A DNA stretch of 64,000 bases from Carpediemonas membranifera BICM. Lineage: Eukaryota > Protista > Fornicata. The stretch is from contig JAHDYR010000062.1 of NCBI GenBank assembly GCA_019828565.1, positions 171,566 through 235,565 on the forward strand. The letters are read 5' to 3'. How positions within the stretch are numbered: position 1 is the stretch's first letter; each line of letters starts with the position of its first letter. This document shows, piece after piece, positions 2,297 to 51,222 of this stretch. The notes beneath the pieces were generated by a model that saw nothing but the letters and a program-made list of their open reading frames with translations, did not search any database and had not been told where the DNA came from. Position numbers and translations under genes: made by a program.

Positions 2297-2410
2297 GGCC
2301 GCTCCTTCTGAGCTCCATGGGGCACTGCCCTATCCATATAGGCCAGGCCTGTTGGTCCTTGTCCATCCATGATCGAAGTGTTTCCACTTTGCTGAAATCA
2401 TTGGTGAACT

Positions 2411-8400: not shown

Positions 8401-9969
8401 ATGCTCGGCCGACCCAACTCGACCCTCGTCTGGATGCGACAGAGCAGGCGATTCCGGCCGAGCTCTGGATCTGAATAGTAGACATACATGGTGCGTTTAC
8501 TGACAGTGCGCTGCGTGCGTGCAGCGTGAGTGTGGGGTGTTCATTCAGAGTCGAGATGTGACTCAACCCCCAAATGGCGAGTCGGACGCGAACGGGCAGC
8601 GCGCTCCTGGAATCAGCAGAGCGATACTCACTCCACGTATTCCGGTAGCGCGCGGTCCGGCGCCCTCCGCCCGCCTCGATGCTCGGCCGACCCAACTCGA
8701 CCCTCGTCTGGATGCGACAGAGCAGGCGATTCCGGCCGAGCTCTGGATCTGAATAGTAGACATACATGGTGCGTTTACTGACAGTGCGCTGCGTGCGTGC
8801 AGCGTGAGTGTGGGGTGTTCATTCAGAGTCGAGATGTGACTCAACCCCCAAATGGCGAGTCGGACGCGAACGGGCAGCGCGCTCCTGGAATCAGCAGAGC
8901 GATACTCACTCCACGTATTCCGGTAGCGCGCGGTCCGGCGCCCTCCGCCCGCCTCGATGCTCGGCCGACCCAACTCGACCCTCGTCTGGATGCGACAGAG
9001 CAGGCGACTCCGGCCGAGCTCTGGATCTGAATAGTAGACATACATGGTGCGTTTTACTGACAGTGCGCTGCGTGCGTGCAGCGTGAGTGTGGGGTGTTCA
9101 TTCAGAGTCGAGATGTGACTCGACCCCCAAATGGCGAGTCGGACGCGAACGGGCAGCGCGCTCCTGGAATCAGCAGAGCGATACTCACTCCACGTATTCC
9201 GGTAGCGCGCGGTCCGGCGCCCTCCGCCCGCCTCGATGCTCGGCCGACCCAACTCGACCCTCGTCTGGATGCGACAGAGCAGGCGATTCCGGCCGAGCTC
9301 TGGATCTGAATAGTAGACATACATGGTGCGTTTACTGACAGTGCGCTGCGTGCGTGCAGCGTGAGTGTGGGGTGTTCATTCAGAGTCGAGATGTGACTCA
9401 ACCCCCAAATGGCGAGTCGGACGCGAACGGGCAGCGCGCTCCTGGAATCAGCAGAGCGATACTCACTCCACGTATTCCGGTAGCGCGCGGTCCGGCGCCC
9501 TCCGCCCGCCTCGATGCTCGGCCGACCCAACTCGACCCTCGTCTGGATGCGACAGAGCAGGCGATTCCGGCCGAGCTCTGGATCTGAATAGTAGACATAC
9601 ATGGTGCGTTTACTGACAGTGCGCTGCGTGCGTGCAGCGTGAGTGTGGGGTGTTCATTCAGAGTCGAGATGTGACTCAACCCCCAAATGGCGAGTCGGAC
9701 GCGAACGGGCAGCGCGCTCCTGGAATCAGCAGAGCGATACTCACTCCACGTATTCCGGTAGCGCGCGGTCCGGCGCCCTCCGCCCGCCTCGATGCTCGGC
9801 CGACCCAACTCGACCCTCGTCTGGATGCGACAGAGCAGGCGACTCCGGCCGAGCTCTGGATCTGAATAGTAGACATACATGGTGCGTTTACTGACAGTGC
9901 GCTGCGTGCGTGCAGCGTGAGTGTGGGGTGTTCATTCAGAGTCGAGATGTGACTCGACCCCCAAATGGC
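2411..9969. repeat. Tandem array 1: 27 units of a ~278-280 bp GC/CpG-rich repeat
   Basis: Unit GACCCCCAAATGGCGAGTCGGACGCG...CAGAGTCGAGATGTGACTC starts at 2411, 2689, 2968 ... 9678; a partial 28th unit (9956-9969) is cut by the element. Confidence 0.99.
9956..9969 (+). other. Target-site duplication, left copy (GACCCCCAAATGGC), element B
   Basis: The same 14-mer recurs at 18663-18676, immediately after the other end of the element; an uninterrupted repeat unit contains it once. Confidence 0.9.
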
Positions 9970-10876
9970 AAAGAAAGAAATTTATGGTGCTTGGATTCTG
10001 ACCCCGGACTGAGCTTGTTTCCCGTTGTCTTGGAGCTGAGTGCCCCGGGGGTACTGCCTATTTCCCGTGGCAAACTGGTCAGCAGCGTTTGCCTTGGGCT
10101 TTCGGTGCTACTGTCTCCGCGGAAAGCCGATTCCAATCGCCCCAGAGGCCCTGCGGCCATCTCCGTGCAAATATGCTTTCCTGTCTCCCTGAAAGTCCGG
10201 CAACTATCCGGGGAGCCTGGGGGTCTGTCCTCGGGGCATTGACAGGCAGGATCGTCCTGCAGAACCTTGACTATGACACTCCTTGCTTCCCTGCAGTCCT
10301 TGTAGAGCCGTTCAGCCACGGCACCCTCTCGTCTGTCCGGTTCCCCAATTCCATGCCCCCTCGACTCTGTTAAGAAGCCTACCCGAAGGCGGGGAAAGTG
10401 ACTAAGTCCATGCTGTCTACCCCGGTTAGGTGGCGTGGGTCAGGGCATGGGTGGTGTACCCCCAGGCACTAGGCCTGGTTGTCCTGTTACCCCTTACAAC
10501 ATTTCGCTTGCACTACATGTCCTTGGTTTCCCATGTCGTTAACAAGGGGCGGCAGGGGCACCTGTGCCCTCCGACCCCGTGGCCAGTCCCTGCAGTTTCC
10601 TTGGGGTCCCAACGAGTGGTGCAACCATATGAATATGGATTTCCTTGACCTTATCCTTGCTCTGTCCTTGTTGCATGTCCTTTCTTTCTTATTTCTGGTC
10701 TGTCCTTCCTGTTGTTTCCTTGCAGTCGTTCCTTCCCTTGCTTTGGTTCCTGGCTGCCGGGATGCGTGGGGCCTTTCCTCACTGATCCCAGGAGCTTAGC
10801 ACCAACGAGGGTGGTCCATAGCTGATTCCTTGTCCATCCCTTCCCGGTCCTGGAGTCAGGGGTTCATGACATGCTT

Positions 10877-13800
10877 CTATTCCACCTTGAAGCTGTTGTA
10901 AACCTTTGCCAGTTCCCGTAGTCCTGCCGTGAGGCCTTCCCCAAATGTCCTCCGAGCCCCATATTATTAGTTGCTGTAATTCTAGGATGGGTCTTTCCTG
11001 GTACCATTCGCCCTGGGGGGCCCTGCCTTACTTCCAAGTCCTTAGTTTTGTGCTTCGCTGCTGTCCACAGCTTTTGTCCAAGCTTCTCCCCTGTCTACTG
11101 CCGGGCATTCACAGATTATGTGCGCTGCCGATCCCTAGCCTCTGGCCCTCTGCCCACTCCCTGATCATTTCCTGCTTCCTTGCTGGTCCTGGCTTTTTCC
11201 CTAATGATCCTGTAGAACAGGCTCACCTCCGACTCCTCCGAGCATAGGGGGCATAGTCTGCTAATTTCTCTCTTCAGGTCAGCGCCTTGGGCCAGCTCTG
11301 TGATGGCTCTCATAGGGCCCTCCCTCTCTCTGCCGACGATGGGGATGGGCTGACATTGGCTGCAATGGATACAATTCTCTTCCATTCCGCCCTGCTTTGC
11401 CCCTTCCCAGCCTTTCGGTCTACCGTAGGCTTACCTTTGCAGACACTTGCTTAATTTCCCTTGTCCCCATGATTTCCATTAGTCCTAGTGCCGTACGGCT
11501 TTTGCACCGCTTCATCCACCCCCTCCTGATCGTTTCCATGCCATAATCCAGTAGCGCTGGTTTAGGGGCTCTCTCTGGTGCCCTCCAGTAGATGCTGCAC
11601 TCTCCCCTAGCTTCCCACATAACCGTGCCCCGCCCCCATTCTCTGTTTCTGACTGGTATATCCCTGGTCCCTGTAGTTGACTATCCTTTTTGACTGCCAG
11701 CCATTCCATGTGTGCCTGGAGGTCCACCCATCCATTCATCAGCCTCATGGCTGCGCCCCCTCCCGGTCCTGTTCCTGCCATGATTCCCTGCCAGTCATTC
11801 CAGATCCTTCTACCTCCCGGTGCGTTCCCCCACACCTCGACTCCGAAGAGGATCCTGGGCCATATATATATTTCCAGTAGTAGCCTGCTCGCTAGTGCTG
11901 GCATGTTTGCCCTGGTCCACCCTGCCCATCTCACCAGTCTCTTGTACCTTTCGCTCTGCTCCTGTTTCCGCCTTATGCAGGCCGACGCTAGGGTCCTTCC
12001 CACTTGCGATCCATAATCCCAGGTATCTCGCCTCCTTCTCTGGCAGTAGTGTTACCCCCTCGATCCTGACTAGGGGCTGTTCTGTCCACGCTAATCATTA
12101 CATTCTTCTGGGCGTTCACCCTCATTTCATGCTCTCTGATTATGTCCACCATTATGTTGGCGACCATCTGGCTATGCTCCGGTTTTGCTCCCTGTGACCG
12201 CAGTGTCATCCACAAACATGGTAAGTGCTGCCGGTAGTCGGTCGCTGAGGGTGGCTCGTGGTCCTTGGCGGTTCTCTGATGTCGTACCGTTCTCCCTTGA
12301 TTTTTCTTTCTGGCCAGGTGGGGCCAGTTAGCCATGAACAGCACAAACAGTGTCGGTGCCAGGACGCACCCTTGCTTAACTCCCCTGTTGGTTCTTTCCC
12401 ATGCCTTTGCCCCCTTGACTGATATCCAGGGTTTCCTTTATTGTGCCTTGAATTGCCCTGATCAAGTGCTCCTCCACCCCCATACCCTGTAGCTTATCCA
12501 TGAGAATGTCCCTTGGTACCGTGTCATATGCCTTCTCGATGTCCAGAAAGATTGACGTGGTCTCACCCCCTCCTGGTGCCGCTGCACGATGTACTGTATC
12601 TGCTGGATGACGTCCCTGTCTGACTGGAAACCAGCCTGTTCTCTTGGTATGAACCTTTTTCGTTGCTGCTTCCAGACGTATCTTGAGCAATCTACCATAG
12701 ACCCTGTACAGCAGTGGTGTCAAGGATATTGGTCTATATGATTCCGGCTTGACCCTTGGCTTCCCTTTTCTTGTGTATGGCCGACACTGTGGCATACTTC
12801 CATGCTTTGGGTACGTCGCCCTCCCTGTAGACCCTGTTGATGAGCCTCGTCACTTCCCTAAGGCCTTTCTCATCCAGCTCTCTCAGCATGTCTCCAGATG
12901 TGAGGTCAGGCCCTGGTGCGGTGTCCCTCCTGATCCTTTTTGATTGCGGCTTTGACCTCGCTTTCCTTGAACTCATTTCCGTCCCTGCCCTCCATGTCTT
13001 TCCAGGTGGGTTCCCTGCCTCTGCTGACTCTAGCATACTGTTTGCAGAGGATCTCGCTGATGGCCGCCTTGTCCGTGGTTATCACTCCGTCCTTGAGGAG
13101 GCTCTCCGGCATTCCCTTGTATTGGTTGTCACACCACCACCTTCTGATGGCAGCTTCCACTGAGGGCCCTTGAGGGCCCTATACCCCCTTTTTTGCACTT
13201 CTGCTGATGTCGGCCACCCATTTGGCCCTGCGCTCTCCCCAGTATTTCTCCAGCTCCTCTTTCATCCTTTCCTTCCTGGTCCTGTTGCCTATTTCTGTCC
13301 ATGGGGTTCGCTGGAGTTCGCTCCACACTCCGTTCCCGAACACTTTGTCCCTTGCCTTTGCTCCCCTGTTGTTCACTGGGTCGCCCATGCATGCTCTTAT
13401 AGTCTCTTCCCATTGGTCCGAGCTCTTGATCCTGTTCGGCTTTGGGACTGTGACTGGCCCCTCCTTCTTTTTCATGGGCCGGGTGTGCACCTCGGGTATG
13501 GCCAGAGCCACGTCTCGCTCACTTCTGCCATAGTACCGTTGTTCCTTCCATGCTAGTGTGATTCCATTGTGTGCTGAGCCCCCATACCCCGACCTTCTGA
13601 GACTCTACCACCTCAATCTCCGCCCCTGGATTCCTGGTGTTGTCACTGCAAAGTCCGGGGTTGATGTTCCTGATGTGAGCGTCCCAGACTTGGGTATGAT
13701 GGCTTTGAGCCTGTGCTTCTCCATCATATCCTTCCACCGGGTGGATCTTTCCATCTGGCCTGGGTCGATGTTCCAGTCTCCCATAATTATGGCCTCCATG

Positions 13801-14337
13801 CTCCCTTTCATGTCCATGATCTTCTGTATAGTGTCCCTGAATCCATCCTTCTCCTGCTTGCTGTGGCCGGATGGAGGGCCATACGTTGATGACTAGTATG
13901 TCCCTGCCGGTTCTCATTATGCTGGCTTGCACTCTTCCCGATAGGCTGTCCGTTATGCCGATGTCCCACTTTGCAGTTGCGTGTGGGCTCACTATCGATG
14001 CCGATGCCTTCCCTTGTTCCCTTCCATCTTGGCGCAGGTTCGTCATTGCCTGCTATGCCTAGTTGTCGGTTGATGCGGTGCTGACTTTTTGACATCCGCC
14101 TTTCGTTTTTCGTTGGCTAAGACCAGGTCCTCTTCCGTCTCCCTCCCTGCTGAGTGCGTAGTCAAGGTCCATGAAGCAATGAACCCTCGTATTCGCCGTT
14201 CTCCATGTCTCTTGTATGAGTACTGCCTCTATGTCCTTCAACCTTAGCTGAATCGCCGTTGCCATAGACGCCGTGAAGTCCTTTCCTCTTCCTATGTGTC
14301 CCTCTGTGTTCAGACTAAGTATCTTGTAGGTTACCAT
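10877..14337 (-). CDS. ORF2 copy B: APE endonuclease - reverse transcriptase - CCHC zinc finger (~1150 aa, reconstructed across frameshifts)
   Basis: Starts MVTYKILSLNTEG. APE motifs LIQET, INVYGP, IIMGDWN, TPDFAV. RT motifs APGPD, YRPISL, QAGF, FLDIEKAYDTV, GVKQGCVLAP, FVDD (12205-12216), YLG. Then CPLC...HIICECP; ends ...KVYNSFKVE* (TAG at 10877-10879). Confidence 0.92.
11102..11253 (-). other. C-terminal CCHC zinc finger of ORF2 (CPLC-x~37-HIICEC)
   Basis: Continuous in copy D (ORF 43347-43739: PLCSEE...AAHIICECP); H-x4-C pattern typical of non-LTR ORF2 C-termini. Confidence 0.65.
12015..12925 (-). other. Reverse transcriptase domain, copy B
   Basis: Non-LTR RT motifs in the expected order from APGPD to RYLG; best preserved in copy C (ORFs 28631-29050 and 27866-28474). 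Confidence 0.95.
13550..14337 (-). other. APE (exonuclease III-like) endonuclease domain, copy B
   Basis: N-x-x-G (LNTEG), QET, NVYGP, GDWN, PDF and a terminal WNH motif in APE order. Confidence 0.9.
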
Positions 14338-14513
14338 TGCCTTTGTCCTGTTTCCTTATCCTGCGAATTCCCAGAATTTGGGGCCCCAACTTCCCGCTCC
14401 TCTCCTGCTATCCTTGTCCTAACAAGGGGCTAGATACCGGTCTCGGTGACCCTTGTCAGGCCAACCTTGTTACCACCTGGTGACCTTCCATTCTTCGGGC
14501 GGGGTACTTGGGA

Positions 14514-14609
14514 GGGGGACGATATGACGTGACCCCCCCTTTGGCTGCCGCTACAGCCTACCGGCAGTGCATTTCAGCTAATGCCGGGCCCTGGAGTGGG
14601 AGCCAGGGC
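14514..14609. promoter_or_regulatory. Cluster of four adjacent hairpins in the ORF1-ORF2 spacer (putative structured RNA)
   Basis: GGGGG/CCCCC (14514-14537), GGCTG/CAGCC (14543-14558), CCGGCA/TGCCGG (14561-14587), GCCCTGG/CCAGGGC (14588-14609); also present in copies C and D. Function is inferred. Confidence 0.4.
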
Positions 14610-14656
14610 TTGTGAATTATAAAGAAAATGTTGCTTGTTCCTTGAAGAATACTGCT

Positions 14657-17600
14657 TTACCATGTCCTTACTCCTCCTCCGTGGACTCCCCACTGCCGCT
14701 GCAGCTGTCCTCGGCCTGACTCACTTGCTGTCCTTGTAGACTCTGCATTACCGTGATGAACTGGGTCATCAGGTCCATGGAGTGAGATCTGCTTGGCCTT
14801 CTTAGCCTTCTTGTGCTTGTGCCGGGGGGATCGTGGGCTTCTCCTTGCTGGGCTTAGTCGCGACGCCGGAGAGCACCAACCTTCCGTGGCCTTGCTCTTG
14901 CATGAGTCGGGCAGCCTTGAGCGCTGAGATCTCTTGTTGCGCCTCTGCCAGCTGCTTTCGGAGCCGCAGCTTCTCCGAGTCCATGCCGGTTGCCTGTCTG
15001 CTTCCAGACTCCCAGTCCATGTCCTCTTCGTGCCTGCTTCTCTTTCCGCTGTCCGAGTCCATGATCCTACTCGTGCTGCCCTCCTTGCGCTTGAGCGTCG
15101 TGGAGGAAGAGTGATCCTTGCTGTTGTCCATGCCTCCCTCTGAGCCTCTACCGGCCCAGGTGTTCCCGCTGAACGAGCCTCTCATCTGCGTTCCCGTGTT
15201 GTCCTGTCTCTCCCTGTCGTCTCCTCCGTGGTTGCGATCCGAGGTCCTGTTCATGTTACCAGCTCTGTCGCCGGTTCTGTCGTCAGCTCTGACACCAGCT
15301 CTACCGCCGGCTCCGTGTCCTACCCTTCTGTCCTCTTCCCTGTCTCCATGCTGGTCGTGATGTCCTTGATCCGCGTCCTGGCCGAAGTGCCTGCCCACCA
15401 TCCTGGTGCTAATCCGCCTCGCCTTTTCCTCCAGGCCGTTGTCCGAAGAACCTACTTTGGTATGGCTGTTCCGGACTTTCCGTCGATGGTGGGGACATAC
15501 GTGATGCCTGGGACATTGACTGTGTTGGCTCTGGGCTCGTCCGGGATAGCTGCCGAGACTAGTCTGGCCCCTTCCTTGCGCATGCGGCTTAGGATGGTCC
15601 CAGCCTCGCTGACCCTGACCATGCCCCCAGTCTCTCGGGATGAAGCTCGCCCCTAGGGTGATCCTACCCCTGTTCCTGGGGGGCCTTGACGTTGACTATG
15701 ACCTTCTCATAGTCCCTGAGGCTCTCTGCTAGGTCGTCGCAGCCCCAGACTCCTTGATGAGCCGTAGCCTCCTTCGAGGGCCACCACTCGTATAGCATGG
15801 CCATGGTTATGATGTCCTCCTCCCTTGCTGCCCCTAGGCCCTTCCTGACGCGTACCATGCGGAGCTGGTTTAGCCGTGGCTCTTTCCATGATGGTCCATA
15901 GCGGGCTTCTCTCCAGTACACCTTCGTTGTCCATGATTGTGAGGGGGGCCGGTAAGATGCCCTTCATGCCCAACAGAACCTCCCCGAACCCGAAGCCGAT
16001 GCCGAAGCGGTGTCCGTTGTCCGGGACTACGAGGGATCCTGTCGCCGACTTCCCTGCTGACGTCCCTTGCGTCCCCGATCGGGTACGTGCCGAAGATCTC
16101 AAAGGTGTCCCTCCTTGTCGCGAATTCCGGGCCTCCCATGATATCCATGCCCGGCTCCGCCTTCCCGACTGCTTCCATGGTCTTGTCGAGTGCCTTACCC
16201 ATGTAGTGGTAGACGTCTGGGGTGCTCATCCTCTCCTTGCATGGGGCCCTGATCCTGGCTGTGAAGACTACTGTATCCGCCAACCCACAGTGGTAGCAAC
16301 CCGCGGTGTGTCTGTGGTACGGACAGACTCCCTTGGGCTCGCTCCTGTTCTGCCATCCATTTGACCATGTTGTTGCTGCTTCCGGGTAGTTGGCCTTGTC
16401 GAGGTTGTCCCTGAGGTTTTGGCCAGCCTCCTCCTTGCCGTTGTTCTCCAGGATCTCTGGTAGCTTCTTCTCGTCCACCAGCCTAGCTTGGAAGAATTCC
16501 CTGGTTCCTTGCTCCAGTCCATTTGTGGGGTTCGTGAGGAGGAAGCTTTCCATCTCCACCCCTTTGCATACATGATTATCTTCCAACCCTCCGACCTTTC
16601 GATCCTTGCCAGCTGAGCCGCCAGGCGGTTGGCCCCAGTCCCTGAAAGTATGTATGTGCTTCTCATACTCGATCGGCGGCCGCCCCGTCCCGACCTCCAC
16701 GAAGGTGGCCGGCGGCAGCCTTCGTCACTACCCATGCCGTGTACCTCGCTTGGTCCATGCTTGCTGCCGGTATGTCCTGGTAATACAGGCCATGCCCGTG
16801 TCCAAGAATGTCCCCAGTGCTGAGGTCAAAGAGTACGATCCCGCCCTCAACCGGGATGGCGGGGATCCCTACCTTCTTGACGCCAGGGTCTGCGCACTCG
16901 AAGTCGATGGCTCCGATCACCAGTCGTTTCTCCTTGTCCTTTCTAGGCATCCTCGGCGGCTGGCTGCTGACCTTGTTTGAGTCGACCTCCTCGTCCTGGT
17001 CGATCTTGCCTTGGTTGGCCCCGACCATGTCCTTGTTCACTTCCAGGAGGCTGTCGTCGAGGCTTCTTCTGCCGGGCATGGTGGCCTGCTGGCGTCGTTC
17101 CTCCTTGTCCTTGACATGTTGCTCCTCGTCTCCGTCGATGACCGTGCTAGCGGACGACCTGTCCAGATCGGCATGTTCGTCCCTATTGCTGCGGACCGAG
17201 GTGGCCTTGAGCACTTCCAGCCTCACCTTCCGGAACGGCGGCTCGTTGCTAAGGGGGTCTCCTCCCCTTCGCCCAGGATATTGGTTCTGCCCTTCAGGTA
17301 GATCCCTGACTTGTTCCATGCTGCCTGCCATATGGCCGGGGCCTCCGGTGCCTGAAGCCTGAGGGATGTCCCTAGCCTCCTCCATGAAGCGGCTGATGGA
17401 CCATGCTGACGTGTCGCTTAGCTCTAGGATGACCCTGTACTTGCCGTCCTCTTGCTCGTAGGCCACTCTGGTGACCGGGCCTTGGTTTTGCCGGATCCCA
17501 TACCTTGTCGTAAGGCACGCCTTCTACGGCCTCGTCTCCATGAGCCCCTGATACCAGTATGAACGACCCTTCGGCCTTCTTGACGCTGTCCCTGTCTACA

Positions 17601-18548
17601 TCCCATTCGATGGGCCCATCTTCCCTTCGGCTTGAGGATCGCCGTCTCGATGTCCTTCTCAGATGGCCATCTTGCCATGCCAGTGAAGCCCGCTTTCAGC
17701 GTCTTGGGCTCCAGTGCCTGTGCCATGTCCTTTGCTTCCTCGTCTCTGGGGTTGAGCGCCTCTGTGAGCATGTAGAAAAGGTCGCGGAGGCCGTGGATGC
17801 CGCATGGGTTCCTGAGGATGATGTCCTTGTTGTCAGTGACGCCGGTTGCGAAGAGGATGCGTCTGGCGTTCATGATTACTTCCTTGCGTCCTTTGGAGTT
17901 CGCATTGAGCGACTTTCCTGTAAACTTGCCTGTTCTGCGAAGAAGTAGAGTCCTTGAATCGTTCCTTTCAGCGAGGAAGCTGTCCAGTAGTTCCCTGATG
18001 TCCTCCCACTGCTTCTGCGTGGAATCCCTGATCCTTGTCGGTATTTCTACCTGCATTGTTGAGTGCAAAAATTTCTCCCCTTTTCCTGGTCCATAAACTG
18101 GGTCGGAATTTTTTTGGGTCCGAAAGTCGGGCCACATGTACATATCCGGGTGAGGTCTCCGTCCAGGCCTTCCAGTTTCTCCCATTGTCCATGCTCCGTA
18201 CTATATAGGCCATTCTTTCAAAAAGGCGCGGTCCTAAAAAAATGCGTCGCCCTTTTTCTGAGTAGCGGGGCCTTTCTGTGTAGTTGTTGTTGCTTTGTTC
18301 GTAGTCTCCTTTTTAGCCTCTATCGACGGCCCCTGTTTCCCTTTTTGTGCTGCCCTTCCTTCCTTGTGGTCTTGACAAAACCATGTAGCCGCCGGTGCTA
18401 GCACTGGCCCTCGACGGTTGTTTTCCTTTTCCTTGTAAACATACGTTCCATGAAGACACTTTGATTCCTTGGTATGGGCGTGGAGCTCCCACTCGCGCCC
18501 AGCGGTATGCCCTGATAGCAACCCTTGAATGTTCAGACAGGAGGCCAA
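14657..18548 (-). CDS. ORF1 copy B (~1200-1300 aa): unknown N-terminal region, DEDDh/ECHC exonuclease, unknown domain, low-complexity region, coiled coil, basic tail
   Basis: Fragments 18234-18548, 17424-18185, 16663-17466, 15870-16700, 15707-16102, 15664-15921 and 14802-15401 chain together by comparison with other copies; ends ...GGGVRTW* (TAA at 14657-14659). Start codon uncertain. Confidence 0.75.
16260..16925 (-). other. DEDDh/ECHC exonuclease domain, copy B
   Basis: IDFEC at 16894-16908, in frame with PAIPVEGGIVLFDL (ORF 16663-17466); CPYHRHTAGCYHCGLAD at 16275-16325. Confidence 0.78.
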
Positions 18549-18662
18549 GGCCGCTCCTTCTGAGCTCCATGGGGCACTGCCCTATCCATATAGGCCAGGC
18601 CTGTTGGTCCTTGTCCATCCATGATCGAAGTGTTTCCACTTTGCTGAAATCATTGGTGAACT

Positions 18663-18676
18663 GACCCCCAAATGGC
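18663..18676 (+). other. Target-site duplication, right copy, element B
   Basis: GACCCCCAAATGGC directly after the element's 5' end; identical junctions at 2411 and 34933. Confidence 0.9.
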
Positions 18677-21600
18677 GAGTCGGACGCGAACGGGCAGCGC
18701 GCTCCTGGAATCAGCAGAGCGATACTCACTCCACGTATTCCGGTAGCGCGCGGTCCGGCGCCCTCCGCCCGCCTCGATGCTCGGCCGACCCAACTCGACC
18801 CTCGTCTGGATGCGACAGAGCAGGCGATTCCGGCCGAGCTCTGGAGATGAATAGTAGATGCATATGGTGCGTTTACTGACAGTGCGCTGCGTGCGTGCAG
18901 CGTGAGTGTGGGGTGTTCATTCAGAGTCGAGATGTGACTCGACTCCCAAAACGATGAGTCGGACGCGAACGGGCAGCGCGCTCCTGGAATCAGCAGAGCG
19001 ATACTCACTCCACGTATTCCGGTAGCGCGCGGTCCGGCGCCCTCCGCCCGCCTCGATGCTCGGCCGACCCAACTCGACCCTCGTCTGGATGCGACAGAGC
19101 AGGCGATTCCGGCCGAGCTCTGGATCTGAATAGTAGATGCATATGGTGCGTTTACTGACAGTGCGCTGCGTGCGTGCAGCGTGAGTGTGGGAGTGTTCAT
19201 TCAGAGTCGAGATGTGACTCGACTCCCAAAAACGATGAGTCGGACGCGAACGGGCAGCGCGCTCCTGGAATCAGCAGAGCGATACTCACTCCACGTAGTC
19301 CGGTAGCGCGCGGTCCGGCGCCCTCCGCCCGCCTCGATGCTCGGCCGACCCAACTCGACCCTCGTCTGGATGCGACAGAGCAGGCGATTCCGGCCGAGCT
19401 CTGGATCTGAATAGTAGATGCATATGGTGCGTTTTACTGACAGTGCGCTGCGTGCGTGCAGCGTGAGTGTGGGGTGTTCATTCAGAGTCGAGATGTGACT
19501 CGACCCCCAAATGGCGAGTCGGACGCGAACGGGCAGCGCGCTCCTGGAATCAGCAGAGCGATACTCACTCCACGTATTCCGGTAGCGCGCGGTCCGGCGC
19601 CCTCCGCCCGCCTCGATGCTCGGCCGACCCAACTCGACCCTCGTCTGGATGCGACAGAGCAGGCGACTCCGGCCGAGCTCTGGATCTGAATAGTAGACAC
19701 ATGCATGGTGCGTTTACTGACAGTGCGCTGCGTGCGTGCAGCGTGAGTGTGGGGTGTTCATTCAGAGTCGAGATGTGACTTGACCCCCAAATGGCGAGTC
19801 GGACGCGAACGGGCAGCGCGCTCCTGGAATCAGCAGAGCGATACTCACTCCACGTATTCCGGTAGCGCGCGGTCCGGCGCCCTCCGCCCGCCTCGATGCT
19901 CGGCCGACCCAACTCGACCCTCGTCTGGATGCGACAGAGCAGGCGATTCCGGCCGAGCTCTGGATCTGAATAGTAGATGCATATGGTGCGTTTACTGACA
20001 GTGCGCTGCGTGCGTGCAGCGTGAGTGTGGGGTGTTCATTCAGAGTCGAGATGTGACTCGACTCCCAAAACGATGAGTCGGACGCGAACGGGCAGCGCGC
20101 TCCTGGAATCAGCAGAGCGATACTCACTCCACGTAGTCCGGTAGCGCGCGGTCCGGCGCCCTCCGCCCGCCTCGATGCTCGGCCGACCCAACTCGACCCT
20201 CGTCTGGATGCGACAGAGCAGGCGATTCCGGCCGAGCTCTGGATCTGAATAGTAGATGCATATGGTGCGTTTACTGACAGTGCGCTGCGTGCGTGCAGCG
20301 TGAGTGTGGGGTGTTCATTCAGAGTCGAGATGTGACTCGACTCCCCAAAATGTAATGAGTCGGACGCGAACGGGCAGCGCGCTCCTGGAATCAGCAGAGC
20401 GATACTCACTCCACGTATTCCGGTAGCGCGCGGTCCGGCGCCCTCCGCCCGCCTCGATGCTCGGCCGACCCAACTCGACCCTCGTCTGGATGCGACAGAG
20501 CAGGCGACTCCAGCCGAGCTCTGGAGATGAATAGTAGATGCATATGGTGCGTTTACTGACAGTGCGCTGCGTGCGTGCAGCGTGAGTGTGGGGTGTTCAT
20601 TCAGAGTCGAGATGTGACTCGACTCCCAAAACGATGAGTCGGACGCGAACGGGCAGCGCGCTCCTGGAATCAGCAGAGCGATACTCACTCCACGTAGTCC
20701 GGTAGCGCGCGGTCCGGCGCCCTCCGCCCGCCTCGATGCTCGGCCGACCCAACTCGACCCTCGTCTGGATGCGACAGAGCAGGCGATTCCGGCCGAGCTC
20801 TGGATCTGAATAGTAGATGCATATGGTGCGTTTACTGACAGTGCGCTGCGTGCGTGCAGCGTGAGTGTGGGGTGTTCATTCAGAGTCGAGATGTGACTCG
20901 ACTCCCCAAATAACGAGAGTCGGACGCGAACGGGCAGCGCGCTCCTGGAATCAGCAGAGCGATACTCACTCCACGTATTCCGGTAGCGCGCGGTCCGGCG
21001 CCCTCCGCCCGCCTCGATGCTCGGCCGACCCAACTCGACCCTCGTCTGGATGCGACAGGCAGGCGATTCCGGCCGAGCTCTGGAGATGAATAGTAGATGC
21101 ATATGGTGCGTTTACTGACAGTGCGCTGCGTGCGTGCAGCGTGAGTGTGGGGTGTTCATTCAGAGTCGAGATGTGACTCGACCCCCAAAATGACGAGTCG
21201 GACGCGAACGGGCAGCGCGCTCCTGGAATCAGCAGAGCGATATTCACTCCACGTAGTCCGGTAGCGCGCGGTCCGGCGCCCTCCGCCCGCCTCGATGCTC
21301 GGCCGACCCAACTCGACCCTCGTCTGGATGCGACAGAGCAGGCGACTCCGGCCGAGCTCTGGAGATCTGAATAGTAGATGCATATGGTGCGTTTACTGAC
21401 AGTGCGCTGCGTGCGTGCAGCGTGAGTGTGGGGTGTTCATTCAGAGTCGAGATGTGACTCGACTCCCCAAATGGCGAGTCGGACGCGAACGGGCAGCGCG
21501 CTCCTGGAATCAGCAGAGCGATACTCACTCCACGTATTCCGGTAGCGCGCGGTCCGGCGCCCTCCGCCCGCCTCGATGCTCGGCCGACCCAACTCGACCC

Positions 21601-24600
21601 TCGTCTGGATGCGACAGAGCAGGCGATTCCGGCCGAGCTCTGGATCTGAATAGTAGATGCATATGGTGCGTTTACTGACAGTGCGCTGCGTGCGTGCAGC
21701 GTGAGTGTGGGGTGTTCATTCAGAGTCGAGATGTGACTCGACTCCCCAGAATGGTGAGTCGGACGCGAACGGGCAGCGCGCTCCTGGAATCAGCAGAGCG
21801 ATACTCACTCCACGTAGTCCGGTAGCGCGCGGTCCGGCGCCCTCCGCCCGCCTCGATGCTCGGCCGACCCAACTCGACCCTCGTCTGGATGCGACAGAGC
21901 AGGCGACTCCGGCCGAGCTCTGGAGATGAATAGTAGATGCATATGGTGCGTTTACTGACAGTGCGCTGCGTGCGTGCAGCGTGAGTGTGGGGTGTTCATT
22001 CAGAGTCGAGATGTGACTCGACTCCCCAAAAACGATGAGTCGGACGCGAACGGGCAGCGCGCTCCTGGAATCAGCAGAGCGATACTCACTCCACGTAGTC
22101 CGGTAGCGCGCGGTCCGGCGCCCTCCGCCCGCCTCGATGCTCGGCCGACCCAACTCGACCCTCGTCTGGATGCGACAGAGCAGGCGACTCCAGCCGAGCT
22201 CTGGATCTGAATAGTAGATGCATATGGTGCGTTTACTGACAGTGCGCTGCGTGCGTGCAGCGTGAGTGTGGGGTGTTCATTCAGAGTCGAGATGTGACTC
22301 GACTCCCAGAACGATGAGTCGGACGCGAACGGGCAGCGCGCTCCTGGAATCAGCAGAGCGATACTCACTCCACGTAGTCCGGTAGCGCGCGGTCCGGCGC
22401 CCTCCGCCCGCCTCGATGCTCGGCCGACCCAACTCGACCCTCGTCTGGATGCGACAGAGCAGGCGATTCCGGCCGAGCTCTGGATCTGAATAGTAGATGC
22501 ATATGGTGCGTTTACTGACAGTGCGCTGCGTGCGTGCAGCGTGAGTGTGGGGTGTTCATTCAGAGTCGAGATGTGACTCGACTCCCCAAAATGGCGAGTC
22601 GGACGCGAACGGGCAGCGCGCTCCTGGAATCAGCAGAGCGATACTCACTCCACGTATTCCGGTAGCGCGCGGTCCGGCGCCCTCCGCCCGCCTCGATGCT
22701 CGGCCGACCCAACTCGACCCTCGTCTGGATGCGACAGAGCAGGCGACTCCGGCCGAGCTCTGGATCTGAATAGTAGATGCATACATGGTGCGTTTACTGA
22801 CAGTGCGCTGCGTGCGTGCAGCGTGAGTGTGGGGTGTTCATTCAGAGTCGAGATGTGACTCGACTCCCCAAAAACGATGAGTCGGACGCGAACGGGCAGC
22901 GCGCTCCTGGAATCAGCAGAGCGATACTCACTCCACGTATTCCGGTAGCGCGCGGTCCGGCGCCCTCCGCCCGCCTCGATGCTCGGCCGACCCAACTCGA
23001 CCCTCGTCTGGATGCGACAGAGCAGGCGACTCCAGCCGAGCTCTGGAGATGAATAGTAGATGCATATGGTGCGTTTACTGACAGTGCGCTGCGTGCGTGC
23101 AGCGTGAGTGTGGGGTGTTCATTCAGAGTCGAGATGTGACTCGACTCCCAAAAACGATGAGTCGGACGCGAACGGGCAGCGCGCTCCTGGAATCAGCAGA
23201 GCGATACTCACTCCACGTAGTCCGGTAGCGCGCGGTCCGGCGCCCTCCGCCCGCCTCGATGCTCGGCCGACCCAACTCGACCCTCGTCTGGATGCGACAG
23301 AGCAGGCGATTCCGGCCGAGCTCTGGATCTGAATAGTAGATGCATATGGTGCGTTTACTGACAGTGCGCTGCGTGCGTGCAGCGTGAGTGTGGGGTGTTC
23401 ATTCAGAGTCGAGATGTGACTCGACCCCCAAATGGCGAGTCGGACGCGAACGGGCAGCGCGCTCCTGGAATCAGCAGAGCGATACTCACTCCACGTATTC
23501 CGGTAGCGCGCGGTCCGGCGCCCTCCGCCCGCCTCGATGCTCGGCCGACCCAACTCGACCCTCGTCTGGATGCGACAGAGCAGGCGACTCCGGCCGAGCT
23601 CTGGATCTGAATAGTAGACATACATGGTGCGTTTACTGACAGTGCGCTGCGTGCGTGCAGCGTGAGTGTGGGTGTGTTCATTCAGAGTCGAGATGTGACT
23701 CGACCCCCAAATGGCGAGTCGGACGCGAGATCGGGCAGCGCGCTCCTGGAATCAGCAGAGCGATACTCACTCCACGTATTCCGGTAGCGCGCGGTCCGGC
23801 GCCCTCCGCCCGCCTCGATGCTCGGCCGACCCAACTCGACCCTCGTCTGGATGCGACAGAGCAGGCGACTCCAGCCGAGCTCTGGAGATGAATAGTAGAT
23901 GCATATGGTGCGTTTACTGACAGTGCGCTGCGTGCGTGCAGCGTGAGTGTGGGGTGTTCATTCAGAGTCGAGATGTGACTCGACTCCCAAAACGATGAGT
24001 CGGACGCGAACGGGCAGCGCGCTCCTGGAATCAGCAGAGCGATACTCACTCCACGTAGTCCGGTAGCGCGCGGTCCGGCGCCCTCCGCCCGCCTCGATGC
24101 TCGGCCGACCCAACTCGACCCTCGTCTGGATGCGACAGAGCAGGCGATTCCGGCCGAGCTCTGGATCTGAATAGTAGATGCATATGGTGCGTTTACTGAC
24201 AGTGCGCTGCGTGCGTGCAGCGTGAGTGTGGGGTGTTCATTCAGAGTCGAGATGTGACTCGACCCCCAAAATGGCGAGTCGGACGCGAACGGGCAGCGCG
24301 CTCCTGGAATCAGCAGAGCGATACTCACTCCACGTATTCCGGTAGCGCGCGGTCCGGCGCCCTCCGCCCGCCTCGATGCTCGGCCGACCCAACTCGACCC
24401 TCGTCTGGATGCGACAGAGCAGGCGACTCCGGCCGAGCTCTGGATCTGAATAGTAGACATACATGGTGCGTTTACTGACAGTGCGCTGCGTGCGTGCAGC
24501 GTGAGTGTGGGGTGTTCATTCAGAGTCGAGATGTGACTCGACCCCCAAATGGCGAGTCGGACGCGAACGGGCAGCGCGCTCCTGGAATCAGCAGAGCGAT

Positions 24601-26224
24601 ACTCACTCCACGTATTCCGGTAGCGCGCGGTCCGGCGCCCTCCGCCCGCCTCGATGCTCGGCCGACCCAACTCGACCCTCGTCTGGATGCGACAGAGCAG
24701 GCGATTCCGGCCGAGCTCTGGATCTGAATAGTAGACATACATGGTGCGTTTACTGACAGTGCGCTGCGTGCGTGCAGCGTGAGTGTGGGGTGTTCATTCA
24801 GAGTCGAGATGTGACTCAACCCCCAAATGGCGAGTCGGACGCGAACGGGCAGCGCGCTCCTGGAATCAGCAGAGCGATACTCACTCCACGTATTCCGGTA
24901 GCGCGCGGTCCGGCGCCCTCCGCCCGCCTCGATGCTCGGCCGACCCAACTCGACCCTCGTCTGGATGCGACAGAGCAGGCGATTCCGGCCGAGCTCTGGA
25001 TCTGAATAGTAGACATACATGGTGCGTTTACTGACAGTGCGCTGCGTGCGTGCAGCGTGAGTGTGGGGTGTTCATTCAGAGTCGAGATGTGACTCAACCC
25101 CCAAAATGGCGAGTCGGACGCGAACGGGCAGCGCGCTCCTGGAATCAGCAGAGCGATACTCACTCCACGTATTCCGGTAGCGCGCGGTCCGGCGCCCTCC
25201 GCCCGCCTCGATGCTCGGCCGACCCAACTCGACCCTCGTCTGGATGCGACAGAGCAGGCGACTCCGGCCGAGCTCTGGATCTGAATAGTAGACATACATG
25301 GTGCGTTTACTGACAGTGCGCTGCGTGCGTGCAGCGTGAGTGTGGGGTGTTCATTCAGAGTCGAGATGTGACTCGACCCCCAAATGGCGAGTCGGACGCG
25401 AACGGGCAGCGCGCTCCTGGAATCAGCAGAGCGATACTCACTCCACGTATTCCGGTAGCGCGCGGTCCGGCGCCCTCCGCCCGCCTCGATGCTCGGCCGA
25501 CCCAACTCGACCCTCGTCTGGATGCGACAGAGCAGGCGATTCCGGCCGAGCTCTGGATCTGAATAGTAGACATACATGGTGCGTTTACTGACAGTGCGCT
25601 GCGTGCGTGCAGCGTGAGTGTGGGGTGTTCATTCAGAGTCGAGATGTGACTCAACCCCCAAATGGCGAGTCGGACGCGAACGGGCAGCGCGCTCCTGGAA
25701 TCAGCAGAGCGATACTCACTCCACGTATTCCGGTAGCGCGCGGTCCGGCGCCCTCCGCCCGCCTCGATGCTCGGCCGACCCAACTCGACCCTCGTCTGGA
25801 TGCGACAGAGCAGGCGATTCCGGCCGAGCTCTGGATCTGAATAGTAGACATACATGGTGCGTTTACTGACAGTGCGCTGCGTGCGTGCAGCGTGAGTGTG
25901 GGGTGTTCATTCAGAGTCGAGATGTGACTCAACCCCCAAAATGGCGAGTCGGACGCGAACGGGCAGCGCGCTCCTGGAATCAGCAGAGCGATACTCACTC
26001 CACGTATTCCGGTAGCGCGCGGTCCGGCGCCCTCCGCCCGCCTCGATGCTCGGCCGACCCAACTCGACCCTCGTCTGGATGCGACAGAGCAGGCGACTCC
26101 GGCCGAGCTCTGGATCTGAATAGTAGACATACATGGTGCGTTTACTGACAGTGCGCTGCGTGCGTGCAGCGTGAGTGTGGGGTGTTCATTCAGAGTCGAG
26201 ATGTGACTCGACCCCCAAAATGGC
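18663..26224. repeat. Tandem array 2: 27 units of the ~279 bp repeat
   Basis: Unit starts at 18663, 18941 ... 25931; partial unit 26210-26224. Confidence 0.99.
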
Positions 26225-27132
26225 AAAGAAAGAAATTTATGGTGCTTGGATTCTGACCCCGGACTGAGCTTGTTTCCCGTTGTCTTGGAGCTGAGTGCCC
26301 CGGGGTACTGCCTATTTCCCGTGGCAAACTGGTCAGCAGCGTTTGCCTTGGGCTTTCGGTGCTACTGTCTCCGCGGAAAGCCGATTCCAATCGCCCCAGA
26401 GGCCCTGCGGCCATCTCCGTGCAAATATGCTTTCCTGTCTCCCCTGAAAGTCCGGCAACTATCCGGGGAGCCTGGGGGTCTGTCCTCGGGGCATTGACAG
26501 GCAGGATCGTCCTGCAGAACCTTGACTATGACACTCCTTGCTTCCCTGCAGTCCTTGTAGAGCCGTTCAGCCACGGCACCCTCTCGTCTGTCCGGTTCCC
26601 CAATTCCATGCCCCCTCGACTCTGTTAAGAAGCCTACCCGAAGGCGGGGAAAGTGACTAAGTCCATGCTGTCTACCCCGGTTAGGTGGCGTGGGTCAGGG
26701 CATGGTGGTGTACCCCCAGGCACTAGGCCTGGTTGTCCTGTTACCCCCTTACAACATTTCGCTTGCACTACATGTCCTTGGTTTCCCATGTCGTTAACAG
26801 GGCGGCAGGGGCACCTGTGCCCCTCCGACCCCCGTGGCCAGTCCCTGCAGTTTCCTTGGGGTCCCAACGAGTGGTGCAACCATATGAATATGGATTTCCT
26901 TGACCTTATCCTTGCTCTGTCCTTGTTGCATGTCCTTTCTTTCTTATTTCTGGTCTGTCCTTCCTGTTATTTCCTTTGCAGTCGTTCCTTCCCTTGCTTT
27001 GGTTCCTGGCTACCGGGATACGTGGGCCTTTCCTCACTGATCCCAGGAGCTTAGCACCCAGCGAGGGTGGTCCATGGCTGATTCCTTGTCCATCCCTTCC
27101 CGGTCCTGGAGTCAGGGGTTCATGACATGCTT

Positions 27133-30100
27133 CTATTCCACCTTGAAGCTGTTGTAAACCTTTGCCAGTTCCCTGTAGTCCTGCCGTGAGGCCTTCCCAA
27201 ATGTCCTCCGGAGCCCCATATTATTAGTTGCTGTAATTCTAGGATGGGTCTTTCCTGGTACCATTCGCCCTGGGGGCCCTGCCTTACTTCCAAGTCCTTA
27301 GTTTTGTGCTTCGCTGCTGTCCACAGCTTTGTCCAAGCTTCTCCCCTGTCTACTGCCGGGCATTCACAGATTATGTGCGCTGCCGATCCTAGCCTCTGGC
27401 CCTCTGCCCACTCCCCTGATCATTTCCCTGCTTCCTTGCTGGTCCTGGCTTTTTCCCTAATGATCCTGTAGAACAGGCTCACCTCCGACTCCTCCGAGCA
27501 TAGGGGGCATAGTCTGCTAATTTCTCTCTTCAGGTCAGCGCCTTGGGCCAGCTCTGTGATGGCTCTCATAGGGCCCTCCCTCTCTCTGCCGACGATGGGG
27601 ATGGGCTGACATTGGCTGCAATGGATACAATTCTCTTCCATTCCGCCCTGCTTTTGCCCCCTTCCCAGCCTTTCGGTCTACCGTAGGCTTACCTTGCAGA
27701 CACTTGCTTAATTTCCTTGTCCCCATGATTTCCATTAGTCCTAGTGCCGTACGGCTTTTGCACCGCTTCATCCACCCCCTCCCGATCGTTTCCATGCCAT
27801 AATCCAGTAGCGCTGGTTTAGGGGCTCCCTCTCTGGTGCCCTCCAGTAGATGCTGCACTCTCTCCCTAGCTTCCCACATAACCGTGCCCCCGCCCCCATT
27901 CTCTGTTTCTGACTGGTATATCCTGGTCCCTGTAGTTGACTATCCTTTTGACTGCCAGCCATTCCATGTGTGCCTGGAGGTCCACCCATCCATTCATCAG
28001 CCTCATGGCTGCGCCCCCTCCCGGTCCTGTTCCTGCCATGATTCCCTGCCAGTCATTCCAGATCCTTCTACCTCCCGGTGCGTTCCCCCACACCTCGACT
28101 CCGAAGAGGATCCTGGGCCATATATATATTTCCAGTAGTAGCCTGCTCGCTAGTGCTGGCATGTTTGCCCTGGTCCACCCTGCCCATCTCACCAGTCTCT
28201 TGTACCTTTCGCTCTGCTCCTGTTTCCGCCTTATGCAGGCCGACATAGGGTCCTTCCCACTTGCGATCCATAATCCCAGGTATCTCGCCTCCTTCTCTGG
28301 CAGTAGTGTTACCCCCTCGATCCTGACTAGGGCTGTTCTGTCCACGCTAATCATTACATTCTTCTGGGCGTTCACCCTCATTTCATGCTCTCTGATTATG
28401 TCCACCATTATGTTGGCGACCATCTGGCTATGCTCCGGTTTGCTCCCTGTGACCGCAGTGTCATCCACAAACATGGTAAGTGCTGCCGGTAGTCGGTCGC
28501 TGAGGTGGCTCGTGGTCCTTGGCGGTTCTCTGATGTCGTACCGTTCTCCCTTTGATTTTCTTTTCTGGCCAGGTGGGGCCAGTTAGCCATGAACAGCACA
28601 AACAGTGTCGGTGCCAGGACGCACCCTTGCTTAACTCCCCTGTTGGTTCTTTCCCATGCCTTTGCCCCCTTGACTGATATCCAGGTTTCCTTTTATTGTG
28701 CCTTGAATTGCCCTGATCAAGTGCTCCTCCACCCCCATACCCTGTAGCTTATCCATGAGAATGTCCCTTGGTACCGTGTCATATGCCTTCTCGATGTCCA
28801 GAAAGATTGACGTGGTCTCACCCCCCTCCCGGTGCCGCTGCACAATGTACTGTATCTGCTGGATGACGTCCCTGTCTGACTGGAAACCAGCCTGTTCTCT
28901 TGGTATGAACCTTTTCGTTGCTGCTTCCAGACGTATCTTGAGCAATCTACCATAGACCCTGTACAGCAGTGGTGTCAAGGATATTGGTCTATATGATTCC
29001 GGCTTGACCCTTGGCTTCCCTTGTCTTGTGTATGGCCGACACTGTGGCATACTTCCATGCTTTGGGTACGTCGCCCTCCCTGTAGACCCTGTTGATGAGC
29101 CTCGTCACTTCCCTAAGGCCTTTCTCATCCAGCTCTCTCAGCATGTCTCCAGATGTGAGGTCAGGCCCTGGTGCGGTGTCCCTCCCGATCCTTTTGATTG
29201 CGGCTTTGACCTCGCTTTCCTTGAACTCATTTCCGTCCCTGCCCCTCCATGTCTTCCAGGTGGGTTCCCTGCCTCTGCTGACTCTAGCATACTGTTGCAA
29301 GAGGATCTCGCTGATGGCCGCCTTGTCCGTGGTTATCACTCCGTCCTTGAGGAGGCTCTCCGGCATTCCCTTGTATTGGTTGTCACACCACCACCTTCTG
29401 ATGGCAGCTTCCACTGAGGCCCTTGAGGCCCTATACCCCCTTTTTTTGCACTTCTGCTGATGTCGGCCACCCATTTGGCCCTGCGCTCTCCCCAGTATTT
29501 CTCCAGCTCCTCTTTCATCCTTTCCCTTCCCGGTCCTGTTGCCTATTTCGTCCATGGGGTTCGCTGGAGTTCGCTCCACACCCGTTCCCGAACACTTTGT
29601 CCTTTTGCCTTTGCTCCCCTGTTGTTCACTGGGTCGCCCATGCATGCTCTTATAGTCTCTTCCCATTGGTCCGAGCTCTTGATCCTGTTCAGCTTTTGAG
29701 ACTGTGACTGGCCCCTCCTTCTTTTTCATGGGCCAGGTGTGCACCTCGGGTATGGCCAGAGCCACGTCTCGCTCACTTCGCCATAGTACCGTTGTTCCTT
29801 CCATGCTAGTGTGATTCCATTGTGTGCTGAGCCCCATACTCCCCGACCTTCTGAGACTCTACCACCTCAATCTCCGCCCCCTGGATTCCTGGTGTTGTCA
29901 CTGCAAAGTCCGGGGTTGATGTTCCTGATGTGAGCGTCCCAGACTTGGGTATGATGGCTTTGAGCCTGTGCTTCTCCATCATATCCTTCCACCGGGTGGA
30001 TCTTTCCATCTGGCCTGGGTCGATGTTCCAGTCTCCCATAATTATGGCCTCCATGCTCCCTTTCATGTCCATGATCTTCTGTATAGTGTCCCTGAATCCA

Positions 30101-30592
30101 TCCTTCTCCTGCTTGTTGTGGCTGGATGGAGGGCCATACACGTTGATGACTAGTATGTCCCTGCCGGTTCTCATTATGCTGGCTTGCACTCTTCCCGATA
30201 GGCTGTCCGTTATGCCGATGTCCCACTTTGCAGTTGCGTGGGCTCACTATCGTGCCGATGCTCTTCCCTTGTTCCTCTTCCATCTTGGCGCAGGTTCGTC
30301 ATTGCCTGCTATGCCTAGTTGTCGGTTGATGCGGTGCTGACTTTTGACATCCGCCTTTCGTTTTTCGTTGGCTAAGACCAGGTCCTCTTCCGTCTCCCTC
30401 CCTGCTAGTGCGTAGTCAAGGTCCATGAAGCAATGAACCCTCGTATTCGCCGTTCTCCATGTCTCTTGTATGAGTACTGCCTCTATGTCCTTCAACCTTA
30501 GCTGAATCGCCGCTGCCATAGACGCCGTGGAAGTCCTTTCCTCTTCCCATGTGTCCCTCTGTGTTCAGACTAAGTATCTTGTAGGTTACCAT
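27133..30592 (-). CDS. ORF2 copy C (APE-RT-ZnF)
   Basis: INVYGPP...IIMGDWN (ORF 29806-30189), YRPISL...QAGF...FLDIEKAYD (ORF 28631-29050), MFVDD...RYLG (ORF 27866-28474). Confidence 0.9.
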
Positions 30593-30918
30593 TGCCTTTG
30601 TCCTGTTTCCCCTTATCCCGCGAATTCCCAGAATTTGGGAGCCCCAGCTTCCCGCTCCTCTCCCGCTATCCTTGTCCTAACAAGGGGCCTAGATGCCGGT
30701 CTCGGTGACTCCCTTGTCAGGCCAACCTTGTTACCACCTGGTGACCTTCCATTCTTCGGGCAGGGTACTTAGGAGGGGGACGATATGACGTGACCCCCCT
30801 TTGGCTGCCGCTACAGCCTACCGGCAGTGCATTTCAGCTAATGCCGGGCCCTGGGTGGGAGCCAGGGCTTGTGAATTATAAAGAAAAATGTTGCTTGTTC
30901 CTTGAAAGAATACTGCTT

Positions 30919-34818: not shown

Positions 34819-34932
34819 GGCCGCTCCTTCTGAGCTCCATGGGGCACTGCCCTATCCATATAGGCCAGGCCTGTTGGTCCTTGTCCATCCATGATCGAAG
34901 TGTTTCCACTTTGCTGAAATCATTGGTGAACT

Positions 34933-46865: not shown

Positions 46866-47191
46866 TGCCTTTGTCCTGTTTCCTCTTATCCCGCGAATTC
46901 CCAGAATTTGGGAGCCCCAGCTTCCTGCCTCCCTCTCCTGCTATCCTTGTCCCAACAAGGGCCTAGATGCCGGTCTCAGACCCCTTGTCAGGCCAACCTT
47001 TGTTACTCACCTGGTGACCTTCCATTCTTTCGGGCAGGGTACTTAGGAGGGGGACGGATATGACGTGACCCCCTTTGGCTGCCGCTACAGCCTCACCGGC
47101 AGTGCATTTCAGCTAATGCCGGGCCCTGGGTGGGAGCCAGGGCTTGTGAATTATAAAGAAAATGTTGCTTGTTCCTTGAAAGAATACTGCT

Positions 47192-51108: not shown

Positions 51109-51222
51109 GGCCGCTCCTTCTGAGCTCCATGGGGCACTGCCCTATCCATATAGGCCAGGCCTGTTGGTCCTTGTCCATCCATGATCGAAGTGTTTCCACT
51201 TTGCTGAAATCATTGGTGAACT

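Follow-up and report, generated by a model that had tools for sequence, protein, structure and literature searches.

The ORF1 protein of a non-LTR retrotransposon in the free-living anaerobic protist Carpediemonas membranifera very probably contains a Maelstrom-type DEDDh exonuclease domain, for which a zinc site and all the catalytic residues are predicted. By analogy with its relatives, the domain is probably catalytically active. The element was studied in a 64,000-nucleotide stretch of contig JAHDYR010000062.1, referred to here as the window, and all positions are those of the window (Table 1). In the favored reading of its function, the ORF1 exonuclease, predicted to act in the 3'-5' direction, would degrade RNA while carried on the RNA-protein particle of the element, its targets being double-stranded or small silencing RNAs that would silence the element. 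The whole statement, including the mechanism, was assigned a probability of about 0.45.

Table 1. Element copies, coding features, predicted exonuclease motifs and repeat arrays in the window.
Feature	Position	Strand	Basis or remark
Whole non-LTR element, copy B	9970..18662	-	T-rich 3' end, no poly(A)
14-bp target-site duplication, element 3' end	9956..9969	+	junction comparison
14-bp target-site duplication, element 5' end	18663..18676	+	junction comparison
Element copy A, 5' part only	1..2410	-	self-comparison, junctions
Element copy C	26225..34932	-	self-comparison, junctions
Element copy D	42455..51222	-	self-comparison, junctions
Element copy E, 3' part only, no exonuclease domain in window	59018..64000	-	self-comparison, junctions
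ORF1, about 1,130 codons	14668..18056 (end approximate)	-	collinear with P0002, P0009, P0022
Second conserved ORF1 domain (GxKGILL, WP, FIPRxWG motifs)	15470..16200	-	homologue alignment
ORF2: APE endonuclease, RT (FVDD), C-terminal Cys/His motif HIICECP	10870..14337	-	end approximate; apparent read errors
Predicted Maelstrom-type DEDDh exonuclease domain of ORF1, copy B	16260..16926	-	3 apparent read-error indels
Exonuclease domain, copy C (P0001, folded query)	32515..33183	-	single frame
Exonuclease domain, copy A	15..680	-	motif and self-comparison
Exonuclease domain, copy D	48810..49480	-	more errors than other copies
ExoI I-D-F-E-C (D5, E7 of folded query)	16894..16908	-	conservation and structural end register
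P-V-E-G-G, Glu24 in strand beta2, predicted zinc ligand (Bombyx E137 equivalent)	16840..16854	-	model, conservation, PMC4408791
ExoII-position Glu123 in KGxxME	16536..16553	-	invariant, 11/11
C-P-Y-H...H-C-G-L-A-D: predicted zinc ligands C198, H201, C210; ExoIII H209, D214	16275..16325	-	conservation; Bombyx spacing
279-bp repeat array, insertion target, 27 copies	18666..26224		tandem-repeat analysis
Further 279-bp arrays	2414-9969, 34933-42454, 51228-59017		27-28 copies per array

Four tandem units of about 16.25 kb, whether full or partial, make up the window together with part of a fifth element. In each unit, a minus-strand element of 8.7 kb precedes an array of 27-28 monomers of a 279-bp repeat. 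Variant monomers of the repeat recurred in register between arrays 1-3, with an identity of 0.85-0.88 at shift 0 compared with 0.58 for the shuffled null; for array 4, which is rich in errors, the values were 0.66-0.78. Because the monomer variants recur in register, copies A-D of the element are not independent, and the 16.25-kb unit is either amplified whole or an assembler echo. The motifs IDFEC, PVEGG, MESFLL, CPYH and HCGLAD each occurred four times on the minus strand, once per copy A-D (in copy B at 16908, 16854, 16553, 16325 and 16292, respectively). The original prediction, made from the DNA letters, had named motifs common to all four copies, and this was confirmed, but the four copies represent one amplified insertion and do not count as independent support.

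All motifs of copy C lie in the same frame within 240 stop-free codons at 32464-33183. Copy B has three single-base indels, near 16722, 16636 and 16563, which put its motifs into different frames, and copy D has LVIQT in place of LVIGA ahead of DFE. The indels of copies B and C look like long-read errors, since they are private to each copy, enriched in homopolymers and in one case absent from an independent contig. Private indel columns fell in runs of three or more in about 50 of 73 cases for copy B and 25 of 32 for copy C, a slightly generous count, compared with 18% of background bases. Furthermore, copy C is interrupted just before GAIDFE by an extra base at 33181, which is missing from an independent contig of run X2; the contigs of runs X1 and X2 span parts of the element only, and runs X3 and X4 yielded none.

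Some further features of the repeats were observed. The whole window is a 16.25-kb higher-order repeat, with a copy number that may be real or an assembly echo, and identity to copy B drops from left to right (99, 98, 96 and 85%), as at a thinly covered end of a long-read contig. The 279-bp repeat has two main monomer types and may be a satellite or an array of uncharacterised RNA genes. The predicted folding of one monomer was more stable than that of its shuffles (z -3.36). The repeat gave no Rfam or tRNA match; the Rfam search over 9000-20000 returned nothing at E<1 and that over 18000-19300 two chance-level matches, and no tRNA was found.

An APE endonuclease (PF14529, E 4.3e-07, 30.2 bits against a cutoff of 27.4) and a non-LTR reverse transcriptase (RT; PF00078, E 1.7e-16) were both found in ORF2, which starts at 14337, and the element is thus an APE-type non-LTR retrotransposon. 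No long terminal repeats were present in the self-comparison of the window. A 14-bp duplication of the repeat brackets the entire 8.7 kb, the exonuclease domain included, and the 3' end is a short T-rich tract that abuts the target. R1 and the Tx1-group are target-specific APE LINEs, with a multicopy tandem-repeat target and a duplication of fixed length. The setting was the same in our study, but the target is the 279-bp repeat and only one independent insertion was seen, the four junction pairs at one site all coming from one amplified unit. The C-terminal motif of the APE domain, usually SDH, reads SAH at 13589, 29842 and 46099 (minus strand) in the three copies read. In addition, a 160-codon open frame was observed at the 3' end of copy B (9960-10439, minus strand); it is broken differently in the other copies and gave no Pfam match.

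ORF1 was taken as one gene of about 1,130 codons because the homologues P0009 and P0022 continue in a single frame through the downstream region to the coiled coil, with an end near 14670. The exonuclease accordingly lies within one ORF1 of an APE-RT LINE, as had been proposed. The sister protein P0002 (KAG9391360.1) is collinear with window 18056-15676. The stops of P0002 and P0004 at 849 aa had suggested that ORF2 and the exonuclease ORF might be separated by a third ORF, and this reading was dropped as P0009 and P0022 cross that region in one frame. The order in ORF1 is a variable N-terminal domain, a linker, the exonuclease, a second conserved domain, a low-complexity region and the coiled coil. 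In every long homologue the exonuclease is followed by the second domain, which spans about 250 aa and had no Pfam match. The ORF1 proteins of CR1, L2 and RTEX LINEs likewise combine an enzyme domain with a coiled coil, but that enzyme is an SGNH esterase and not a nuclease. In a sister family, the exonuclease ORF J8273_4943 and the RT J8273_4944 have consecutive locus tags and accessions on the same 218,884-bp contig, and this RT is 81% identical to that of the window. The exonuclease domain travels with the RT, for which this pair, the one sister locus where RT adjacency was examined, provides independent support.

Homologues were collected with phmmer from 1.84 billion representative sequences (E<=0.001), which gave 14 matches, 12 of them new. 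Among the 10 that were looked up, four were from Carpediemonas membranifera and six were other NCBI records, the latter located on contigs of 3.8-10.8 kb, with four of the six proteins measuring 1,129-1,250 aa. The closest proteins were those of Carpediemonas membranifera, with P0006 at 98% identity, and the homologues in this organism split into five or more lineages that are about 31-52% identical. No relatives were found in metagenome contigs, viral contigs or prokaryote genomes. One match, P0021 (E 3.5e-4), was removed; it is a tandem-repeat protein that lacks the motifs. P0013 (KAG9395705.1), annotated as 'Splicing factor U2AF', is a fragment of the exonuclease-ORF1 family, and the annotation is likely wrong.

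Residue conservation was evaluated on a dereplicated set of 13 sequences, mostly at 20-69% identity, which omits the near-duplicates and fragments P0003-P0006, P0009, P0013 and P0023. Near-invariant columns (invariant or with one exception) numbered 29 of 221, and all nine proposed catalytic and zinc residues were among them, eight of which had been named before the homologues were known. Unlike the four copies, these diverged homologues provide independent support for the motifs. The hypergeometric probability of 3e-9 for this overlap is inflated, the homologues having been chosen by similarity to the query. C198, H201, C210, D214 and E123 were each conserved in 11/11 sequences, E7 in 9/9, H209 in 10/11, E24 in 9/10 and D5 in 8/9; the single exception at E24 falls at the ragged start of a gene model. 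A catalytic residue was lost in two Carpediemonas membranifera homologues, P0010 (D to Y) and P0016 (H to L).

The domain of copy C was modeled with AlphaFold from a 19-sequence alignment, with a mean pLDDT of 71.6 and a pTM of 0.70, compared with a pLDDT of 36.3 for the single-sequence fold; residues 48-87 and 203-207 were under 50. An RNase H-like/DEDD fold was predicted, in agreement with the original prediction. The order beta1-beta2-beta3-helix-beta4-helix-beta5-helix is that of DnaQ-like nucleases, with D5 and E7 in beta1, E24 in beta2, Glu123 after beta4, and H209 and D214 at the last helix. In the model, the DnaQ/RNase H-like fold and the placement of ExoI and ExoIII are those of the DEDDh superfamily, and the key residues would probably cluster in 3D.

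Structural searches with the model pointed to the same superfamily. In a search independent of Foldseek, 49 of the 50 matches listed were, by their titles, DEDD/DnaQ-type nucleases or polymerases bearing such a domain, and the Foldseek matches were likewise DEDD nucleases. The Z scores were 9.8, 9.2 and 9.0 for Maelstrom, 7.3 for Lassa NP and 7.2 for LCMV NP. In a second structural search, Bombyx MAEL was at the top (Z 10.2, rmsd 4.1, 162 residues aligned), tied with ERI1, DnaQ and RNase T. Overall, the Maelstrom structures scored Z 9.0-10.2 over 155-167 aligned residues, which is moderate. Moreover, the Atlas model of P0002 415-650 had all 10 of its neighbors at TM 0.57-0.62, of which five were named exonucleases, three RRM/ESRP1-type proteins and two phage proteins without a name. 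Weak Foldseek matches included two chrysovirus proteins and one Fusarium mycovirus protein, a hint of DEDD-like domains there.

The structural alignments placed model residues 1..223 against DnaQ 8..176, Bombyx 118..315 and Lassa 385..542. Under the assumption of an ungapped terminal strand and helix, D5 would fall on DnaQ D12, Bombyx D122 and Lassa D389, D214 on DnaQ D167, Bombyx R306 and Lassa D533, and C198/H201/C210 on Bombyx C290/H293/C302, with reference residue numbers from passages of PMC4408791 and PMC3429428. The C-H, H-C and C-D spacings of 3/9/4 were found in all 11 sequences covering the region and are the same as in Bombyx C290-H293-C302-R306 (passages of PMC4408791). Together with E24 in beta2, this spacing agrees with the E-C-H-C zinc site that had been put forward, as a predicted site.

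The DEDDh pattern originally proposed stood in its D-x-E, its H-x4-D and its complete catalytic set, but the Glu of PVE is predicted to be a zinc ligand and not ExoII. From its position, the ExoII residue is probably the invariant Glu of KGxxME, which is Glu123 and not Asp, giving the order D-E-E-H-D and the tetrad D-E-E-D. The Glu of KGxxME occupies the position of the HNxxFD motif.

The relationship to Maelstrom and to arenavirus NP was compared. The protist MAEL (Entamoeba EHI_192630) and animal Maelstrom (PDB 5AF0, 4YBG, 9NHC) have the DEDDh fold in common with the predicted domain, which also shares with Maelstrom the Glu in beta2 and C-x2-H-x8-C at the same spacing, and the catalytic residues are kept as in the active amoebal MAEL. 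Unlike Maelstrom, the domain is embedded in a retrotransposon ORF1, with no HMG box seen, an identity of 8-12% and Glu at ExoII. The Maelstrom and arenavirus nucleocapsid profiles, which had been suggested for a check of the domain, gave no Pfam match with the window protein or its homologues, and the sequence search against known nucleases found no match in Pfam, PHROGs, NCBIfam or PDB sequences. At the sequence level, the domain is therefore outside both Pfam families. In the EHHCHC signature, the candidate first His (H42) was present in 9/10 homologues and the candidate second His in 3/10, with Thr in the window protein, these candidates having been placed without direct alignment to MAEL sequences. 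Since the Pfam model missed the domain and part of the signature is absent, it is Maelstrom-type and not a Maelstrom.

Nor is the domain an arenavirus NP. The C-terminal ExoN of arenavirus NP (Lassa 3R3L, LCMV 4O6H) is an ECHC-type DEDDh domain fused to the RNA-coating protein of a genetic parasite, it has an H-x4-D ExoIII as in the window domain, and an Atlas feature match of 0.89 was obtained, as a lead only. However, its fold score is lower (Z 7.2-7.3), its C-H-C spacing is longer, and the Gly after the ExoI Glu is mostly missing in our family, being Cys in the window protein and Gly in 2/9 homologues. The fold score and the zinc-ligand spacing thus favored the Maelstrom half of the original 'Maelstrom / arenavirus-NP-like' description over the NP half.

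ORF1p is a high-copy LINE protein that coats the element RNA in many copies, and for this reason a scavenger role is favored over a step performed once per cycle. An RNA exonuclease is favored because known proteins that combine the DEDD and ECHC sets act on RNA and because ORF1p coats the RNA of the element. Entamoeba MAEL with DEDD and ECHC is an active exoribonuclease (passages of PMC4408791), and arenavirus NP, an RNA-coating protein, destroys dsRNA via its ECHC-DEDDh domain (passages of PMC3429428 and PMC7968707). From these active relatives we infer catalysis, and likewise the RNA substrate and the anti-silencing role. Several points speak against the favored reading. ExoII is Glu in place of Asp, two homologues have lost a catalytic residue, parts of the model have a pLDDT under 50, and the Z scores are moderate. 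The ORF1p exonuclease could also attack the RNA of its own element unless it is restricted in substrate. In addition, Lassa G392 is needed for activity (passages of PMC3429428), and Cys stands at the matching position here. Argonaute and Dicer are absent from several diplomonads according to passages of PMC11437800 that do not cover Carpediemonas.

The main alternative, though rather unlikely, is that the nuclease works in cis on the element RNA. It would either shorten 3' ends that carry a tail or result from read-through until they match the exact T-rich end employed in target-primed reverse transcription, or clear the template RNA in place of the missing RNase H. The sharp T-rich 3' end at the target, free of poly(A), is consistent with such trimming, the tandem-array setting makes read-through plausible, and ERI1 and RNase T, among the tied top fold matches, are 3'-end trimming enzymes. 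No RNase H was seen in ORF2, with Pfam blank on three C-terminal pieces, whereas P0008, the nearest outside RT relative, bears an RNase H and aligns to copy B over the RT only. A similar role has been proposed for the DEDDy ORF3s (passages of PMC5408684). However, a once-per-cycle step would suit ORF2 over high-copy ORF1, a 3'-5' exonuclease differs from RNase H, and the identical 3' ends, as one amplified insertion, carry little information on processing. Compared with this, it is improbable that the nuclease works on DNA and removes 3' flaps or mismatches at primer ends during integration. Although the DnaQ, RNase T and TREX1 folds are within about 1 Z of Maelstrom and the same function has been suggested for the DEDDy domain in Dada transposases (passages of PMC3706591), the tested ECHC-type members, Entamoeba MAEL and arenavirus NP, use RNA, and a function at DNA ends would be expected on ORF2.

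It is about equally improbable that the domain is only the RNA-binding module of ORF1p, with no working nuclease. Animal MAEL binds ssRNA without catalysis (passages of PMC4408791). Profile searches of ORF1 recovered neither an RRM nor a CCHC knuckle nor any other RNA-binding domain known from ORF1 proteins, which is in line with such a module, as are the Glu at ExoII and the two homologues with catalytic substitutions. However, D5, E7, E123, H209 and D214 are kept across deep divergence, while the pseudonuclease Maelstroms lose them, and nidovirus ExoN also shows D or E at ExoII (passages of PMC7968707). Finally, it is highly improbable that the exonuclease ORF belongs to the host or is a mere passenger beside an RT gene, a reading for which only the single sister locus of RT adjacency leaves room. 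This reading is already largely refuted by the position of the domain inside the target-site duplication, by the ORF that it shares with the C-terminal coiled coil (uninterrupted in P0009), by the one continuous strand skew across ORF1 and ORF2, and by the recurrence of the domain in several diverged multicopy families.

Exonucleases of the DEDD superfamily are known in other mobile elements. Intact DEDD 3'-5' exonucleases were reported in ORF3 of the rotifer Juno/Vesta LTR elements and of the Athena/Terminon elements (passages of PMC5408684), as well as in Dada transposases (passages of PMC3706591). In the rotifer ORFs, DEED is also present, and a Cys-His-Cys motif occurs in Vesta2/5 (passages of PMC5408684). 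These domains are RNase D-like DEDDy, reside in LTR, Penelope-like or DNA elements, and form separate ORFs or lie inside the transposase, whereas the predicted domain of the window is DEDDh/ECHC inside a non-LTR ORF1. DEDDy exonucleases in other retroelement classes and in Dada are thus already known. For a DEDD or MAEL domain in a non-LTR element, by contrast, the literature searched, with Repbase, Dfam and most subscription journals outside the scope, held no earlier description, which is in agreement with the original expectation. The element was not mentioned in the searched passages of the DAM-retrotransposon preprint (bioRxiv 10.64898/2026.05.21.726589) or of the Carpediemonas membranifera genome paper (PMC8516963), the latter giving 0 matches for 'transpos'. 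A broader proposal, in which a new ORF1 type would carry an active ECHC-DEDDh silencing suppressor and the element pool would be the source of host Maelstrom and the arenavirus NP exonuclease, is quite unlikely.

With the predicted domain, a nuclease joins the short list of enzyme domains in LINE ORF1 proteins. Animal Maelstrom defends the host, and here a Maelstrom-type domain, predicted to be catalytically complete, is on the side of the transposon. The 220-residue domain is directly expressible and assayable. Moreover, the rare ECHC-DEDDh fold would have a third home after hosts and arenaviruses, and the direction of transfer is testable by phylogeny.
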